From positions 4,964 to 68,963 of the forward strand of contig SIBK01000009.1 of assembly GCA_009695205.1 (NCBI GenBank): a stretch of 64,000 nt of DNA. Direction: 5' to 3'. Of the stretch, positions 21,043 through 28,381 are shown piece by piece (position 1 is the stretch's first letter; each line of letters opens with the position of its first letter). The notes beneath the pieces are model-generated. The model ran no database searches. It was not told where the DNA came from and was given only the letters and a program-made list of their open reading frames with translations. The translations under genes were made by a program, and so were the position numbers. The stretch is from Pedosphaera sp. Its GTDB lineage: Bacteria; Verrucomicrobiota; Verrucomicrobiia; Limisphaerales; UBA9464.

Positions 21043-21258
21043 GGGTCAATGAGTAACATGTTTCACGCTCCCGTCAAGATACGTAGCTGTCGCCGTGAGC
21101 AGACGCTAGCCAATCTGCTCGCAAATCCACGCGCGTCGATTCCGGGAACTCCGCCTCGCTCACGACATCATAGAGTCCGTGTCTTCATCCGTGGAATCCG
21201 CAGGTGAGGCACACCCATTTGATTCAGGTCAAAGGATTGTGCAAAGACTGCCGGCGAT

Positions 21259-22781
21259 TTGACCGGAGTCAAAGGGAGGCGTTCTCTCTGGTGTCAGTGT
21301 GCGCTCAAGAAAGACAATCTTGTGATCACCCTCAGCCAGATAAGCCGGAAGAGTTTTGAAGCAGACAGCCCCTGTGGAATCGCACTCACGGCGCCGCCTG
21401 CGGGGGCGTCCGAGGCAACGTCGGTCGAACAGCAGTCCTGGATCCTCTCCCTGGATTATTCGTTGACCCGTCGCGCGCTGAGTTTAGCCATTGGAAGTCT
21501 GCTTCTCGCGGGTTGTTTTTCCCTGCTGCTGATCGTCTGGTTCTTCTCCTTTGCCGCGGCCCTTTATTCGTTATTGCCCGGAGAAAAGTCGGGCCATGCG
21601 ATGTTTCGCGCAGGCTTTGCCGTCGCGTGTGGCGGGGTGCTGACAATGGTTGCGGGAACCATGATTCCGGGCACTCGCCGGTGCTGGCCAACTACGTGCC
21701 GGTCATCGATAATCCGGTGTATATCACGGGTGTGGCGCTGTTCTTCGCTGGCCTGCTGCTGTGCTTCTTGAACGAGCGCTTGTTCGTCCGCTCGCTCGAT
21801 GCTTCTCAACAGGCCCCTCCTTCAGTCTGGGACCCGTTTCGGGTCACGCCGGATGTTGTGACGGCATTGAAGACCACTGCGCTGGCCTATCTCGTGGCGA
21901 TGACCACTTTTCTAGTATCGTGGGCGGCGACGCCACACGAATTGGAAGCTAAGGCCTACTATGAGCTCGTGTTCTGGGGCGGTGGGCATGTGCTGCAGGT
22001 GGCGAACGTGGCTGCAATGCTTGCGGTATGGCTATTGTTGCTCTCATCGCTATTGAAGTCCCCAGTTCTATCGGCCAAGACGGCGCAGGTGTTGTTTGCA
22101 CTCTTGCTCGCACCGCATCTGATTGGGCCCCTCCTCACCCTAAACGGAACGCTCACGTCGACGTATCGTCTCGGGTTCACAAGGCTGATGCAATTAGGCA
22201 TCGCTCCGGTGGTGGTGATTCTCTTAGGGATTTGCGTGCGACGCCTCCGGGCAGCATGGCGTGGTGGAGTCATTGGGAAGAAGAATTTGTACGACCCACG
22301 CCTGGTCGGATTTGTCGCGAGCGCGGCGCTAACGGTTACAGGCTTCCTGATGGGGTCGGCCATTCGTAATTCCAACACGATGATCCCAGCGCACTATCAT
22401 GCCTCCATCGGCGCGGTAACAGTCGCGTTCATGACCATCACCTATCTCCTGCTCAAGCCGCTCGGCTTCGTGCTGCCGGGAACGCGTCTGCCCAGGCTGA
22501 TACCCTGGCAGATCTGCCTCTTCGGCTTCGGTCAGGTGATTTTCGCCATCGGTTTTGGTCTAGGCGGCATGCACGGCCTGAGCCGCAAGGCTTATGGGGT
22601 CAAGCAACACATCCGGTCGATGGGCGAGGTGATCGGCCTTGGCGTGATGGGTGTGGGCGGACTCATCGCCGTTGCGGGCGGACTGTTGTTCCTGCTGCTG
22701 ATGATCTATGCGGGGCAATCCCGAATCCCGGTTGGCATTCCCCAACCTAAACTCGAATCCATGGCAAGGAGTAACGTATGA
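21259..22781 (+). pseudogene. Degenerate heme-copper oxidase subunit I paralog
   Basis: ORFs 21259-21771 and 21513-22781 join by a frameshift near 21670. The product is multi-TM and aligns by eye with the downstream subunit I: FWGGGHVLQVANVAAM vs WWGLGHMSQQVNVCAM; LAPHLIG vs SAHHLLV; IPAHYHAS vs IPGHFHVT. The segment corresponding to ...WFYRILTLHGLNML (low-spin heme His) is missing, and one CuB His is replaced (HH becomes PH). Confidence 0.6.
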
Positions 22782-22888
22782 GTGAACCAAACAAAAAGCA
22801 CCCGATACAGAAATTGATGGACAACACCTGGCTGTTGCTGGCGCTAGGCATTTTGATCCCGTTTCTTTCCTACACCGTGTGGGGTTGA
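22778..22888 (+). CDS. 36-aa single-TM peptide, possible small oxidase subunit (subunit IIa-like)
   Basis: Manual translation gives MSEPNKKHPIQKLMDNTWLLLALGILIPFLSYTVWG followed by a stop. Its ATG overlaps the upstream stop (ATGA at 22778-22781). It is too short for the ORF track. The position before subunit II mirrors ba3-type operons. Confidence 0.35.
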   Translation: MSEPNKKHPIQKLMDNTWLLLALGILIPFLSYTVWG

Positions 22889-22945
22889 ATCGAGATCCTG
22901 CTGGTCAAACCGGCGACTCTTCCGTGAAAGCCAACCTGAGGATCC

Positions 22946-23500
22946 ATGATGAGTCAACCTTCTCGCAGCAGCATTGAATGTCCGGCGCCGGATTGGTTCA
23001 AGGTGCCCACTGGCAACGAGCGGATCTGGATCGGCCTCGCCCTCTGTTGGTGCATGGTTATGTCCCTGATGATGCCCTACTGGCACTTCAAGGGAAAACA
23101 GAACAGCTCCGGTGAATCCTATTCGGTGAAGCCCGCTGATTTCACAAAACGCACGGAGAAATTCATCCTGGCGAATACAGGTGCCGAGTCACTTCTGGAA
23201 GAAGGCCTCGCCCCAATCGTCCCCGCGCCGCCAGGCGATGTCTATTTGATTGCCAAACAATATTTCTGGTTCCCGATCCTCAAGCTGCGCGCAGGAGAAG
23301 TCTACCGGTTGCACATTTCTTCGGTCGATTTTCAACACGGCTTTTCGCTACAGCCCATAAACATGAACTTCCAGGTCGTGCCGGGCTTTGATCACGTTCT
23401 CACCATCACGCCCCAGGCGCCGGGTACCTACCCGATTGTCTGCAACGAATTCTGCGGCATCGGGCACCAGAATATGGTCGGTAAAATCATTGTTGAGTAA
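22946..23500 (+). CDS. Heme-copper oxidase subunit II, cupredoxin domain with CuA site
   Basis: 184-aa ORF with one N-terminal TM helix. CuA ligand pattern: H in FQHGF, then CNEFCGIGHQNM (C-x-E-x-C-x3-H-x2-M). Confidence 0.85.
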   Translation: MMSQPSRSSIECPAPDWFKVPTGNERIWIGLALCWCMVMSLMMPYWHFKGKQNSSGESYSVKPADFTKRTEKFILANTGAESLLEEGLAPIVPAPPGDVYLIAKQYFWFPILKLRAGEVYRLHISSVDFQHGFSLQPINMNFQVVPGFDHVLTITPQAPGTYPIVCNEFCGIGHQNMVGKIIVE

Positions 23501-23513
23501 GGAGAAACACCCC

Positions 23514-25241
23514 ATGAGTAACAATACAAATGGAAAACGGATTTGCGCAACCACCGGCCTGCCAATCTGCCTGGATGCCGAGTTCTTCATCAAATGCAAC
23601 GCCGTGCTCGGCATCGTGTTTCTCCTGATTGGCGGCATCGGCGCCCTTCTGCTGGCACTCACCCGGTGGCAAACCGTCCATCTCCTGCCCGTCGATTGGT
23701 TCTATCGCATACTGACGCTGCACGGGTTGAACATGCTAATTTTTTCGATCCTGTTCTATGAAGTGGCGATTCTCTATTTCGTCTCCACATCCCTGCTCAA
23801 TGCCAAGTTGGCTTCCGTCAAGACTGCATGGGTCTCCCTCATCATGATGGCCGTCGGCGCCGTGATGGTGGACGGGACGATCCTCGTGGGGCAAGCCGAC
23901 GTCATGATGACCTCCTATCTGCCGTTGCTGGCGCACCCGGCGTTTTATCTTGGCATCATTTTCGTAGCCGTAGGAACGCTCATCGCCGTAATCAATTACT
24001 TCGCCACACTCTACAAGGCCAAGAAGGAGAAGACCTATCAAGGCTCGGTCCCGCTGGTCGTCTTCGGGGCGACCGCTGCTGCGATTATTGCGGTGGTGAC
24101 TTTGTTGCATGGCGCGATCGTCATGATTCCGACGTTCCTATACTCGATGGGATGGATTGCGCAGCCCGATCCGATCTGGTATCGAATGACCTGGTGGGGC
24201 CTGGGCCACATGTCGCAGCAGGTCAACGTCTGCGCGATGGTCTCGGTGTGGTACCTGTTGGCGACACTCACCACGGGTGCGAAACCACTCAATGAAACAG
24301 TCTGCCGCGGCGCGTTCCTGCTCTACATCTTCTTCATCAATCTTGCTTCCGCCCATCATTTGCTCGTCGATCCGGCAATCAGTGCGGGTTGAAAGATATG
24401 GAACACCTCCTACGCGATGTATCTGGCGGTGCTGGCGTCGATGATCCACGGCTTCACGGTGCCCGCATCGGTGGAAGTGGCGATGCGTCATAACGGCTAC
24501 GTGAAAGGTTTGTTTGGCTGGCTCACAGGCGCACCGTGGCGGAACCCTGGTTTTTCCGCGTTCGTCCTTTCGCTTGTGATCTTCGGCTTTGGCGGCGGCA
24601 TCACCGGCGGCACGCTGGGCGCGCAGCAAATCAACATTATCGCCCACAACACACTGCGAATTCCCGGCCATTTTCATGTTACGGTGGTCGGCGGAACGAC
24701 GTTGGCGTTCATGGGGCTCGCTTTCTATGTGGTGCCGCTTTTGTTTCAACGGGAGTACATCTTCAAACCATTGGCGCGACTGCAGCCCTACCTTTTCGGA
24801 ATTGGCATTACGATTATGGCGATGGGCATGTCGTTCGCGGGCTCGATGGGAGTTGCTCGGCGGAGTTGGGATATCGAGGCCACCGGGTCAATCTACGGCT
24901 CGACGGCGCACTTGTTCCTCGCCTTGGTCGGCATTGGCGGCGTGTTGGCCTTCCTCGGTCTGCTGCTGTTCATTCTGTTGACCGTGGGCAGCCTGCTCTT
25001 CGGACGGTCCTGCGTCGGCAGGTCGATGGAAAGCTGGGGCACGCCTAAACCGCTCGGGCGAGAGGAACAGGAGCACGCGCCGGCCGGCACGCCCCGTGGC
25101 TCCGGCGCTCCCGCTATGGCGCTGGTGGAAGCGCACCCCACCCAAGGAACGATGACGCTCGCGATCGTCTTTCTTATGAGCTTCGCTGTCTATTACTTCG
25201 CCAACTGGAAAGCGCTGGCCGACGTCTGGCCGGTGCGGTAA
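23514..25241 (+). pseudogene. Heme-copper oxidase subunit I, B-family-like but without the cross-link Tyr; interrupted by one in-frame TGA
   Basis: ATG at 23514 preceded by AAGGAG. ORFs 23388-24392 and 24417-25241 are in the same frame, separated by TGA at 24390-24392. Motifs: LTLHG (heme b His); WWGLGHMSQQV (CuB His at 24207-24209, with Gln rather than Tyr at +4); SAHHLL (24354-24359); PGHFHV (24669-24677). GLFGWLTGAPWRNPGF resembles ba3 enzymes. Confidence 0.8.
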
Positions 25242-25272: not shown

Positions 25273-26226
25273 ATGAACAGCATCCGTACAGCGCAGCCGG
25301 TGGACCGGTTCATTTCGGGGGCATCGGGATTCCTCTCGGGCGGTCGTTTTCCGGCCTTTGCGATCTGTGCGCTCGTTTTCTATCAGGTCTTCATCGCCGT
25401 GATGGCGTTCGTGCCGCCCACGGGCGGGGCGTGGGGTGACTTCCTCCAAGACTTTCGGATGCGCTGTTTCAAATTTGATCCAAAGAGTGGGTGGATGGAG
25501 ATGAGCCCGGTGTGGGTCCTGTTGAGCGAGCCGCTGCCGCTTCTGGCCATGTTCTATTTCATCTGGCGCACACCGCTGCATGAGTTGTCGGAGACGCGTC
25601 GCCGGGCATTCGCGCAGGCGGCTTGTTGTGCGCTGCTGTTGGTGAGTCTGATTGGCTTCAGCCTGATGGGATTGGGCCGCTCGCAGGCCACCTCAACCGA
25701 ACTTCCGTTCCCTGCCGTCAACTTGCGCAGCGCGCTGGTGATGCCGTCGTTCACACTCACCAACCAGGAGGGTCACGCCGTCTCGCTCGCCGACTTCAAG
25801 GGCCGCGTCGTGCTAGTCACCGCCGTCTATTCCACGTGCACCACCACCTGCCCGATGATGCTGACGAAAGTGCGCGCGGTCCTGGATCAGTTGACTCCTG
25901 CCGAGCACAACGACATGGCGGTGGTGGCGTTCTCGCTCAACCCGGAAGCCGACACTCTCGAATTGGGTGGCATGATCGCGAAAAGCTATGGAATGAAAGC
26001 GGAGTTCCATTTCGTGAATGGCGTTCCGTCCGAGGTAAATGCGGTGCTCGACACGCTGAATGTCGCACGCACGCGCGACGAGAAGAGCGGCCAGATTATG
26101 CACTCGAACCTTTTCTTCCTCCTCGACCGTGAAGGCCGCATCGCCTACCGCCTCTCCCTAAGCCAGAACGAAGCATCATGGCTCATCTCCGCCCTGCGCG
26201 TGCTATTGGTGGAAAAGTCGTCCTAA
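25273..26226 (+). CDS. SCO1/SenC family copper chaperone (thioredoxin fold) with an extended multi-TM N-terminus
   Basis: 317-aa ORF. CxxxCP motif in VYSTCTTTCPMM, with a downstream His (IMHSNLFFLLD). About 130 N-terminal residues contain several hydrophobic helices. Confidence 0.85.
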   Translation: MNSIRTAQPVDRFISGASGFLSGGRFPAFAICALVFYQVFIAVMAFVPPTGGAWGDFLQDFRMRCFKFDPKSGWMEMSPVWVLLSEPLPLLAMFYFIWRTPLHELSETRRRAFAQAACCALLLVSLIGFSLMGLGRSQATSTELPFPAVNLRSALVMPSFTLTNQEGHAVSLADFKGRVVLVTAVYSTCTTTCPMMLTKVRAVLDQLTPAEHNDMAVVAFSLNPEADTLELGGMIAKSYGMKAEFHFVNGVPSEVNAVLDTLNVARTRDEKSGQIMHSNLFFLLDREGRIAYRLSLSQNEASWLISALRVLLVEKSS

Positions 26227-26249: not shown

Positions 26250-28381
26250 ATGAACGACCACTCCAATCCCGAAGCGATTCCCCAGGAGGGAGAAACCCAT
26301 ACACTCCGCGTTCACGGCGGACGAACATCCAATTCCCCGCTGCCACCCTCTTCGCACGCTGAAGGTTTGCCGCGATGGCTGGAGAATGGCTGGCTCTACC
26401 TTGACCGGCTGATCCAGAACTTGATTCCACCCGAGCTCAATCCCCTCAGTCAGCTCGGCGCGATGGCCAACACCTCCCTGATCATCGCCGTCCTCTCCAG
26501 CATCGCCCTGCTTATTTGGTACACGCCAAGCGTTCATCACGCCTACGAATCTTTGGAAACGATCCGACAGTCCTCGTGGCTGGGCAGCTCGACCGTTCGA
26601 TCCACCGCTATAGTTCCGATGGCTGCCTCTTCTTTGTCCTGCTGCACTCGCTGCGCATCGTCTGTCAGCGCCGATTCATCGGCCCCCGGTGGCTGGCCTG
26701 GACCACCGGTCTGCTGCTCCTCTCCCTGCTCTGGTTTATCGGGTGGACCGGCTACTGGCTAGTCTGGGACGTGCGGGGCCAACACGCCGCGCTCGGCACC
26801 GTGCGTTTTATCGATCGCCTGCCGATCTTTGCCGAACCGCTCTCCCGCTCCTTTCTCACGGACCAGAGTGTGCCCTCGCTGCTATTTTTCCTGATCTTTT
26901 TCGTTCATATGCTCGCGCCGCTTTCCATAGGCGTTGGCATCTGGATGCACCTGATGCGCGTGAACCGCGCGAAGTTTCTTGCCGGTCGCGTGATGGCGCT
27001 CTGGATAATGGGCTCCCTCGTGGTGCTCTCCCTGGTGCGCCCGGCATTCAGCGCCAGTCCTGCGCTCATGAACGTCAAGGCGCTGGAGTTCAACATCGAC
27101 GGGTGGTATCTCTGGCCGTTCGTTCTCACAAACCGGCTGAGCGGCGGATTACTCTGGTCGGTCTTCCTCGTAACAGGGATCGCGGCGCTCAGCGTGCCCT
27201 AGTGGATTGCGAAACGTCGGATCGAGCCGCAATGGAAGGGGCAGGTGGATTTACCACGCTGCATGGGTTGCACTCTCTGAGCACAGGATTGTCCGTTCAA
27301 CGCCATCACCATGGCGCCGCGCGAAGACGGGAGGAAATTCACCGTTCAATCCGCCGTGAACCCCGACCTGTGCGTGAGCTGCGGCATCTGCACCGGTTCG
27401 TGTGATTCACAGGCGATTAACATGCCCGGACTGAATAGCCGTGAGGTGGAGAAACGGCTGCACGTCTGGATCGATTCGCAAAAGTCCCGCAGTTTGAAAC
27501 CATTCGTGGCTTTTTGCTGTGCCGAGTCATCGAGTGCCGTGCTCCGCGCCGACGCCGACGGCAGCTCAGCCGAGTTGCCGGGCTACGTCGTACAAACGAT
27601 TCCATGCGTTGGCTGGGTCAGCGCCGTGATTCTCGAACGAACGTTGCAGCGCGGCGCCGGCGGAGTGCTCGTCGTCGGCTGCGGTGAAGGGGACCCGGTG
27701 GCGCACGAGGGGATGAAATGGTTTGAACAACGCATGAGGGGCCGGCGGGAGCCGAGGTTCGATCCCGCCAAGGCCGATCCATCGCGCGTGCGGTTTGCGC
27801 AATTTGATCGCACGCGCCGCGCTGAGCTGTTGAAGGTAGCTCGAGAATTCCAGCAGCAATCGACGGCGATGCCCGGCAACATGCCGCGCAGGAGACTCTT
27901 GCAGATCGCCGCCGCCATCGCGCTGTGCATGGGCTTGATCACGGTGATCTTCGCACTCAGCAACCTGCCCTACCGAACCCCTCATTCGTCCCAACCGGAG
28001 TTGGTCGTCTCGTTCAACCACAGCGGCGCCATCTTAAACGCACGCAAACTGACTAAGGAAGAACTGGCCAAGCGCCTGCCCCACATGCGCGCCCAGGTTA
28101 ACGTCACTCGCCAACGCACGCCGGTGCGCCTCCGCGTGCACGTGAACGGCCAGATTGTATTCGACCAATCCTTCCAGCCCAAGGGGCTCTCGAAGGACGG
28201 CCCGAGCATCGCCGTCGTGCGCCTGCCGGTGAGCCTCGGCCCGCACCCAGTGCGGGTCGAGTTGGCCGACACCGCCGACCCCAATGTGTGGACCAAGCAG
28301 TGGAGCGAAACGGTGAGCTTCGAGAGCAATCGAACCCGGGTGGTTTTGTTCGACACAAAGGCGGGGTTCTCGCCGCATTAG
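26250..28381 (+). pseudogene. Fusion protein: di-heme cytochrome b (N-terminal domain) + 2x[4Fe-4S] ferredoxin + MvhD/FlpD-like domain + TM + beta-rich C-terminus; disrupted
   Basis: ORFs 26178-26762, 26516-27202 and 27311-28381. Cytochrome b has two His pairs, each spaced by 14 residues (IHRYSSDGCLFFVLLH and VHMLAPLSIGVGIWMH). Ferredoxin motifs are CMGCTL*AQDCP and CVSCGICTGSCD. The MvhD-like region reads FVAFCCAE...IPCVGWVSAVILERTLQRGAGGVLVVGCGEGD. Lesions: frameshift at ~26583; in-frame TAG 27200-27202; in-frame TGA 27278-27280, at the third Cys position of the first cluster motif. Confidence 0.7.

Follow-up and report, generated by a model that had tools for sequence, protein, structure and literature searches.

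A young pseudogene of a cytochrome b, ferredoxin and MvhD-like fusion protein in Pedosphaera sp. and the linkage of its family to eNOR-type oxidase genes

We analysed a stretch of 64,000 nucleotides of the Pedosphaera sp. genome, here called the window (assembly GCA_009695205.1, contig SIBK01000009.1, positions 4,964 to 68,963 of the forward strand; coordinates below are those of the window). Positions 26250-28381 are occupied by a gene in which cytochrome b, a ferredoxin domain for two [4Fe-4S] clusters, an MvhD/FlpD-like domain, a further transmembrane (TM) helix and a beta-sandwich are joined in one polypeptide. This copy is a young pseudogene, and its function has been lost in this genome. 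Its intact relatives are conserved membrane redox proteins, probably of the PDWF-FeS type, and would most likely act as dedicated electron-transfer subunits, operating without a Rieske protein, of the eNOR-type nitric oxide (NO) reductases encoded next to them. This role is proposed because the linkage of the genes is conserved, the start of the fusion gene overlaps the SCO gene in some loci, the protein retains a Qo-like loop and a periplasmic domain, and the cluster contains no gene for a soluble carrier.

Architecture and family of the fusion protein

The pseudogene and the domains of its read-through product are the following.

26250-28381, plus strand: pseudogene of the cytochrome b / 2x[4Fe-4S] / MvhD-like / TM / beta-sandwich fusion, about 710 codons by read-through
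26415-27208, plus strand: cytochrome b module with six TM helices A-F (PF00033, PDB profile, Foldseek)
27095-27136, plus strand: Qo-motif-like ef loop and ef helix, IDGWYLWPFVLTNR (family consensus xDWWYLWPxxLTDR)
27245-27424, plus strand: dicluster ferredoxin domain, motifs CMGCTL*AQDCP (27260-27295) and CVSCGICTGSCD (27371-27406)
27506-27859, plus strand: MvhD/FlpD-like domain (PF02662; profile match to 8rvu_F)
27893-27961, plus strand: seventh TM helix, RRRLLQIAAAIALCMGLITVIFALS, taking the chain back to the periplasmic side (model helix 549-571, preceded by positive residues)
27965-28378, plus strand: C-terminal, presumably periplasmic beta-sandwich of about 138 residues (eight strands in both structure models)

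The read-through translation, with stop codons written as X, was compared with Pfam. Cytochrome_B (PF00033) matches residues 56-239 (E=9.7e-18, 65.1 bits, cut-off 27.2), and FlpD (PF02662) matches residues 420-537 (E=1e-12, 48.5 bits, cut-off 22.3). The match of Fer4_7 to residues 337-389 (E=1.6e-5, 25.7 bits) lies just below the cut-off of 27, because one of the cluster cysteines is replaced by a stop codon. The dicluster Fer4 families (Fer4_7, Fer4_9, Fer4_21) match residues 333-392, and NuoI, HdrA and FwdF are also among the matches of this region. NCBIfam models of cytochrome b6, ExtP-type cytochrome b, NuoI and the ferredoxin and MvhD tail of HdrA2 match in part, with residues 330-537 corresponding to residues 571-767 of HdrA2 (NF040770, E=5e-17). 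A profile built from 74 homologues matches cytochrome b6 chains of the PDB (E=6.7e-32) and, at full length, the MvhD-related chain 8rvu_F (residues 6-124, E=2.2e-10). An earlier note on this DNA, made from its letters alone, had assigned cytochrome b, ferredoxin and FlpD domains to the gene; these searches support the assignments, and the sequence features it listed are all found at the positions it gave.

The best database match of the pseudogene is an intact protein of a congener (P0001; 83% identity over 100% of the length), on which an AlphaFold2 model was made with the alignment of 74 sequences. The mean predicted local distance difference test score (pLDDT) is 90 and the predicted TM-score (pTM) is 0.87, so that the arrangement of the domains is confidently fixed in the model. 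Their order is TM helices A-D, helices 247-263 and 299-320, the ferredoxin, the MvhD-like domain, helix 549-571 and the beta domain 573-710; a short strand and helix 285-296 lie between helices 247-263 and 299-320. In a Foldseek search of the PDB, 300-357 columns were aligned with full-length cytochrome b of the bc1 complex and about 200 with cytochrome b6. Thus the two additional helices correspond to E and F, with the ef loop and helix between them.

The four haem ligands H119 (26603), H133 (26645), H220 (26906) and H234 (26948) form two pairs of the type i, i+14, and all four are invariant in the 74 homologues. The motif xDWWYLWPxxLTDR can be recognised as a variant form of PEWY, the Qo motif. 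It is located between TM helices E and F in the model and corresponds to the 'PDWF' of Kao & Hunte 2014, with the register relative to PEWY ambiguous by one residue. Positions D284, L288, P290 and R296 are invariant, W286 is present in 73 of the 74 sequences, and the family variants include IDWFY, VDWFY and MDWWY. The window copy has LTNR at 27131-27133, where an acidic residue (D/E295) occurs in 73 of 74 homologues. It also has the rare Gly285 (IDGWY) at 27101-27103; this is a trait of the genus and not a lesion, since the intact protein of the congener has it too.

All eight cysteines of the ferredoxin are invariant in the family. Seven are retained in the window copy, where the second cluster motif is intact and the eighth cysteine is a TGA. 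In the MvhD-like domain the only invariant cysteines are C424 (27518), C453 (27605) and C478 (27680). The canonical MvhD cysteines are replaced elsewhere: the third one, in CNWC, is Ser (S427) in 67 of the 74 homologues, and that of GDC is Pro (P483) in 52. In MvhD itself the conserved set bound to the [2Fe-2S] cluster reads CCxxC ... C ... GCxxGDC.

The iron-sulphur and MvhD-like part would face the cytoplasm and the C-terminal beta domain the periplasm, given the orientation of the b6f and bc1 complexes and the positions of positively charged residues expected inside (KRR after helix F, RRR before helix 7). Conserved residues of the beta-sandwich include H591, H612, M613, D650 and H666. A model of this domain alone is of moderate quality only (pLDDT 75), and a Foldseek search of the PDB for its fold gave nothing significant (best E=6.8e-3, query-normalised TM-score at most 0.43). 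A PCuAC-type copper chaperone, with the pattern H(M)x10Mx21HxM, was considered and rejected, as no PCuAC was found among the top 50 Foldseek matches in the PDB, which are generic beta-sandwiches.

A search of protein databases produced 534 homologues, far beyond what chance would give. The best 120 of the 534 are mostly single proteins of 650-780 residues with the same precomputed set of Pfam domains; Verrucomicrobiota, Methylomirabilota and Myxococcota are among their sources. More than 100 homologues are intact, full-length (about 700 residues) and encoded by a single open reading frame (ORF) with the same domains. An exhaustive profile search of 1.84 billion representative proteins yielded 599 clusters (at 50% identity) with E<=1e-30, and the family spans at least eight phyla. 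The single-polypeptide architecture, already suggested by the earlier note, is genuine and ancestral to the family. The opposite reading, separate adjacent genes that only seem fused here through lost stop and start signals, fails because the intact homologues are single ORFs with the same domains. Database annotations of the homologues include 'hydrogenase iron-sulfur subunit', 'cytochrome b N-terminal domain-containing protein' and 'ferredoxin/coenzyme F420-reducing hydrogenase delta subunit'.

Several representatives (P0230, P0231, P0239, P0242, P0245, P0249, P0263) are 510-551 residues long and match profile positions from about 20 to 537 only. These proteins have neither the seventh TM helix nor the beta-sandwich, and may be either a natural short form or products of truncated contigs.

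Proteins of this kind have been noticed before. Kao & Hunte 2014 (PMC4122944) described a 'PDWF-FeS clade' that combines cytochrome b with 4Fe-4S and MvhD domains and lacks a Rieske protein. The fusion family resembles this clade in having a full cytochrome b with an xDW(W/F) Qo motif, a fusion to 4Fe-4S and MvhD domains, and no Rieske protein in the gene cluster. Judging by architecture, motif and taxonomy, it probably belongs there, the two proteins named for the clade having been compared by description; the loci examined here include a Leptospiraceae member (L032). The clade was recorded in a phylogeny only, with no mention of a function, a linkage to eNOR, the seventh TM helix or a periplasmic domain.

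The second relevant description is a preprint on Ferrigenium straubiae (bioRxiv 10.64898/2026.01.22.701106), whose eNOR operon comprises sco1, genes for two cytochrome b-[Fe-S] proteins and one for a 'scaffold protein'. The cytochrome b-[Fe-S] proteins were detected when the proteome of a denitrifying culture was analysed, and the authors suggest a supercomplex in which reduction of NO is coupled to reduction of NAD+. That operon is similar to the cluster considered here in encoding a cytochrome b and Fe-S protein together with eNOR subunits I and II and sco1. It differs in having a second fusion with FAD and NADH domains and a haem o synthase, and MvhD is not mentioned; this comparison again is by description. 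The earlier note had not recognised the protein as a described respiratory component, a view overtaken by these two sources. Further, an appendix table of PMC8756737 lists, in surveyed gene neighbourhoods, a protein of Chloroflexi that combines b6, DMSOR-beta-like and FlpD domains. No mention of the fusion protein was found in the paper of Murali et al., and literature searches for 'PDWF' elsewhere, and for 'hydrogenase iron-sulfur subunit' together with cytochrome b and NOR, gave nothing relevant. The family thus is a real and widespread group of membrane redox proteins, noticed earlier, whose function is predicted.

The gene cluster and the adjacent oxidase

The genomic context was taken from annotated neighbourhoods (called genes with Pfam domains) and from a tblastn tabulation of 80 species-representative genome loci. 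De novo clustering of neighbouring ORFs over these loci was spoiled by antisense ORFs, and called genes with Pfam domains were used instead. In the window, the genes preceding the fusion gene are as follows.

21229-22781, plus strand: degenerate paralogue of haem-copper oxidase (HCO) subunit I, first gene of the cluster (tblastn with the orthologue from L007 splits between frames at 21675)
22778-22927, plus strand: 49-codon gene of a peptide with a single TM helix (MSEPNKKHPIQKLMDN...VWG*IEILLVKPATLP), TGA 22886-22888 at a conserved Trp
22946-23500, plus strand: cupredoxin subunit II, CuA motif CNEFCGIGHQNM intact, gene apparently intact (COX2, Cupredoxin_1, CoxB TIGR02866)
23514-25241, plus strand: HCO subunit I with Gln at the position of the cross-linked Tyr (GHMSQQVN), TGA 24390-24392 at a conserved Trp
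25273-26226, plus strand: SCO1/SenC-like protein, apparently intact (PF02630, E=3.5e-23; CxxxCP and His; 77 orthologues compared)

The order HCO-I paralogue, small TM peptide, cox2 (CuA), cox1, sco and, in the last position, the fusion gene is conserved in essentially every one of the 80 loci that has upstream sequence. It is kept in Verrucomicrobiota, Myxococcota, Calditrichota, Rhodothermales, Planctomycetota, Leptospiraceae, Lentisphaeria and Proteobacteria. Upstream genes are absent only at contig ends, apart from a few loci that lack the HCO-I paralogue alone (L004, L009, L031). The gene immediately upstream of the fusion gene is always the SCO gene. The sco stop codon and the fusion start codon overlap by 4 nt in three loci (L093, L094, L095), and the called genes overlap by 55 nt in a fourth (L096).

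In eight annotated neighbourhoods, neither a Rieske family nor a c1/f-type subunit was found among the conserved genes of the cluster. Where c-type cytochrome domains occur in the flanks, they are part of variable neighbours, namely NirK or NirS fusions, a pyrroloquinoline quinone dehydrogenase and a multihaem protein. Neighbours in some loci include nirK, nirS, Crp and DUF2249 genes.

HCO subunit I is of B-family descent. Its best matches in the PDB are ba3-type enzymes, and GHMSQQ aligns with GHPVVY of 7deg. The pattern GHxSQQ(V/I)N is conserved in about 75 loci. Gln at the position of the cross-linked Tyr is a published diagnostic of the eNOR family (PMC8756737), and the adjacent oxidase is accordingly classified as eNOR-type, that is, as a predicted NO reductase. 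An sNOR, suggested by the SenC gene and by literature on ammonia-oxidizing bacteria, was rejected because the Tyr position holds Gln, whereas sNOR requires Asn (PMC8756737, Table A4); a SenC/SCO gene alone is not diagnostic. The earlier note had placed the fusion gene beside an atypical oxidase with CuA and SCO genes, an association that the 80 loci show to be conserved; the eNOR-type Gln signature and the decay of the whole operon, considered below, were not part of that note.

Subunit II is 91% identical over 184 residues to that of L007, and its CuA motif CxxxCxxxHxxM is readable. The HCO-I paralogue is about 460-510 residues long and conserved in most phyla and loci, and Pfam COX1 matches the product from L096. 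It may be the 'eNOR scaffold protein' of the Ferrigenium preprint. The loci in which it is absent (L004, L009, L031) are of Verrucomicrobia subdivision 3. Orthologues of the small peptide have 36-49 residues and are called as ORFs in L004, L005 and L093-L096; this peptide may belong to the eNOR complex as a small subunit that annotation has missed. The SCO-like protein carries an N-terminal extension of about 150 residues with three TM helices, conserved across the 77 orthologues and containing a loop F...F..WC...DP.TG that is at least 90% conserved. Such a membrane extension is unusual for a simple copper chaperone.

Proposed role of the intact proteins and its alternatives

The fusion protein has partial counterparts in several known systems. 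Its di-haem core of four helices, in which helices B and D carry the His pairs, is shared with b6 and subunit IV of the b6f complex and with cytochrome b of bc1 (6rqf, 7rja, 6kls), and helices E and F and the ef loop of bc1 cytochrome b superpose on it. Unlike the bc1 and b6f complexes, the family has no Rieske iron-sulphur protein, no cytochrome c1 or f and no helices G and H, its Qo motif is xDWW[Y/F] instead of PEWY, and its Fe-S and MvhD-like domains fill the n-side where those complexes have the region of the Qi site. The order of two [4Fe-4S] clusters followed by MvhD is that of MvhD and the C-terminal part of HdrA2 (5odc, 8rvu, 9sw2; NF040770). In contrast to these, however, the fusion protein has only three canonical cysteines, is tethered between two TM segments, and is encoded with no hydrogenase or heterodisulphide reductase genes nearby.

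The SoxM-type supercomplexes of Sulfolobales and haloarchaea (PMC4122944) follow the same logic, a cytochrome b module acting with a terminal HCO and a copper protein, but they have a Rieske protein and sulfocyanin. QmoC and HdrE likewise couple a membrane cytochrome b to cytoplasmic Fe-S proteins; their cytochrome b is of the NarI type, whereas that of the fusion is of the PetB type. The domain order of the fusion is found in none of SoxM, QmoC and HdrE.

For the preferred role, a dedicated redox subunit of eNOR, the following path can be proposed. In the Qo-like pocket, on the periplasmic side, quinol would give up its electrons. One of them would reach the periplasmic acceptors of the complex, namely the CuA domain, perhaps by way of the copper site of SCO or of the beta-sandwich domain. 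Across the membrane, the pocket would be connected with the Fe-S chain of the cytoplasm by haems bL and bH. The Fe-S and MvhD-like chain, in turn, could pass electrons back to quinone, accept them from a donor in the cytoplasm, or hand them to a low-potential acceptor in a bifurcating scheme.

Several observations weigh against this assignment. The literature search turned up no biochemical or genetic work on any protein of the family. The cluster encodes no equivalent of Rieske protein or cytochrome c1 that could accept the first electron of quinol, and a simple path from quinol to CuA would leave the cytoplasmic Fe-S chain without an explanation. The fold assignment of the MvhD-like domain holds, but its cluster content is uncertain because only three of the canonical cysteines are kept. 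The beta-sandwich has no recognisable family, fold relative or cofactor site. Finally, the eNOR of R. marinus was purified as two subunits, as judged by sodium dodecyl sulphate polyacrylamide gel electrophoresis (bioRxiv 10.1101/2021.10.15.464467), and it is active with ascorbate and tetramethyl-p-phenylenediamine (PMC11214002). Since this two-subunit enzyme works with artificial donors, the fusion protein is not needed for catalysis in vitro.

One possibility is that the protein is a transmembrane conduit in which no quinol chemistry occurs, electrons passing from a cytoplasmic donor through the MvhD-like domain, the two [4Fe-4S] clusters, bH and bL to the SCO copper or CuA. Indeed, the model, whose packing is confident, has the Fe-S and MvhD-like domains on the cytoplasmic side, directly following TM helix F. 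MvhD serves as an adaptor for electron transfer in complexes of Mvh and Hdr (PDB matches 5odc_D, 8rvu_F, 9sw2_D), and the cluster has no gene for a soluble carrier. On the other hand, the invariant positions of the Qo-like loop (D284, L288, P290, R296) are hard to explain if quinol is not bound, and no gene for a cytoplasmic donor is conserved beside the cluster. We therefore regard such a conduit as unlikely. If it did exist, reduction of NO would be fed from a cytoplasmic reductant, independently of the quinone pool.

Bifurcation of the Qo type within an eNOR supercomplex, again with no Rieske protein, also seems unlikely, and stands next after the conduit. Here one electron of quinol would go to CuA, perhaps through the membrane-bound SCO copper site or the beta-sandwich, and the other, via bL and bH, to the Fe-S and MvhD-like domains. 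The second electron would yield a low-potential reductant, such as reduced ferredoxin or NAD(P)H, while the very high potential of NO reduction pulls the first. The protein does have a complete Qo-type cytochrome b wired to cytoplasmic clusters of the low-potential type. A sister fusion with FAD and NADH domains has been interpreted as a quinol:NAD+ oxidoreductase that would be coupled to eNOR (the Ferrigenium preprint; Alicycliphilus in Kao & Hunte), and similar ideas exist for Rieske/cytochrome b complexes of anammox bacteria (PMC12954380). However, the argument is purely architectural, neither a Rieske-like gate nor an acceptor is identified, and the cluster ligation of the MvhD-like domain is degenerate. 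Were bifurcation to take place, denitrification would be coupled directly to reverse electron flow.

Less probable again is a helper in biogenesis or maintenance that would carry no catalytic flux and would deliver reducing equivalents across the membrane so that the CxxxC/copper site of SCO, and hence CuA, stays in the proper redox state. The fusion gene lies directly downstream of the SCO gene, with the 4-nt overlap noted above, the SCO protein has its unusual conserved membrane extension, which includes a conserved Cys, and eNOR is active in vitro without the fusion protein. But the known thiol-reducing systems for Sco and CuA (of the TlpA and CcdA/DsbD types) contain neither haems nor Fe-S clusters, the C-terminal domain is not PCuAC-like by fold search, and a protein with two haems, three clusters and a Qo loop is elaborate for such a task. 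Of the roles considered, we thus retain that of a dedicated electron-transfer subunit of eNOR.

Decay of the operon in Pedosphaera

The fusion gene in the window is read in two frames: frame A extends from the ATG at 26250 to 26585, and frame B, shifted by -1, from 26585 to 28381, with its stop codon at 28379-28381. Alignment of the DNA with two intact relatives, L006 of the same genus and L007, revealed three lesions.

26583-26587, plus strand: frameshift, deletion of one nucleotide after 26584 in a GGG run
27200-27202, plus strand: in-frame TAG at Trp318 (VPWW), cytoplasmic end of TM helix F
27278-27280, plus strand: in-frame TGA in place of the cluster ligand Cys344

Both relatives carry a Trp codon at the site of the TAG and a Cys codon at the site of the TGA. 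The column of Trp318 holds Trp in 11 of 11 aligned homologues and in at least 90% of the alignment of 74, and Cys344 is the third Cys of CxxCxxCxxxCP, invariant in the 74 homologues. Moreover, three columns that are otherwise fully invariant show missense changes in the pseudogene (G84S, A331G, R486H). The earlier note had reported a frameshift near 26583, a TAG at 27200 and a TGA at 27278 and had taken the copy to be inactive, which is borne out in full, the deletion now being placed after 26584.

The decay is not limited to the fusion gene. The operon contains six lesions in four of its six genes over about 7.1 kb, and only the subunit II and SCO genes look intact. Outside the fusion gene, the lesions are a frameshift near 21675 in the HCO-I paralogue, the TGA at 22886 in the 49-codon gene and the TGA at 24390 in subunit I. 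Four of the six are base substitutions that create stop codons at a conserved Trp or Cys. Three of these four nonsense lesions (22886, 24390, 27200) turn a Trp codon into TGA, TGA and TAG, respectively, a pattern that fits G-to-A transitions of the coding strand being the main source of mutations.

Only one copy of the fusion gene is present in the genome (4.95 Mb, 142 contigs, 93% complete). Spot checks found rpoB (1335 codons) and two other HCO subunit-I genes uninterrupted. The genome-wide load of pseudogenes, estimated from ORF coverage and adjacent ORF pairs in the same frame, was uninformative, as spurious ORFs dominate at 58% GC.

Another intact HCO subunit-I gene of the genome is G000:C35:49324-50556. 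A cytochrome b-like ORF lies 2.4 kb downstream of it (G000:C35:52987-53382, within a frame of 668 residues) and is 26% identical to the cytochrome b of the fusion. These two may represent a second pairing of cytochrome b with an HCO.

The gene was found in only four of 40 relatives. Within the genus, the copy of one genome (G002) is intact, and all that is left in another (G001) is a remnant, with residues 405-490 joined directly to residues 692-710 and Gly in place of the invariant Cys453 (G001:C224, locus L092, about 1702-2018). The contig with the remnant has no cox1, sco or other genes of the cluster. This remnant is a later stage of the same loss of the operon.

One observation tells against the pseudogene reading. 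In a relative-rate test with L006 as the sister and L007 as the outgroup, 29 versus 43 unique changes were counted, with no excess of amino acid changes in the window lineage. It follows that the inactivation is recent or, less likely, that the lesions are errors of assembly.

The gene would then be intact in the organism, the three lesions being sequencing or assembly errors of a draft genome. This fits the lack of excess substitutions and the position of the deletion in a GGG run. Nevertheless, four of the six lesions of the operon are substitutions creating stops at conserved Trp or Cys, which is an atypical mode of error, the lesions cluster in a single operon, with rpoB (1335 codons) and two further HCO-I genes left uninterrupted, three missense changes fall in invariant columns, and in a congener the same loss has gone further. 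Taken together, these facts make assembly errors very improbable.

Recoding of the stops (TGA as selenocysteine or Trp, read-through of TAG, a programmed -1 frameshift) is effectively refuted, even though a Cys position is the classic place of selenocysteine: no selenocysteine tRNA or suppressor tRNA was found in the genome, the relatives use ordinary TGG and TGC codons, the TAG and two frameshifts would require separate mechanisms, and no single meaning fits TGA, which stands at Trp in two neighbouring genes and at Cys in the fusion.

The locus shows that the six genes can be dispensed with and that they are lost together. One genus contains an intact copy, a freshly broken copy and a deleted remnant, a pattern which supports the six genes forming one functional module. 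On the electron supply of eNOR this locus itself adds little; the wider family has more to say. eNOR-type NO reductases are estimated to make up a large share of the environmental enzymes that form N2O (PMC11214002), and the fusion protein, linked to their gene cluster in all of the roughly 80 family loci considered, from at least eight phyla, is the obvious candidate for their natural electron supply.

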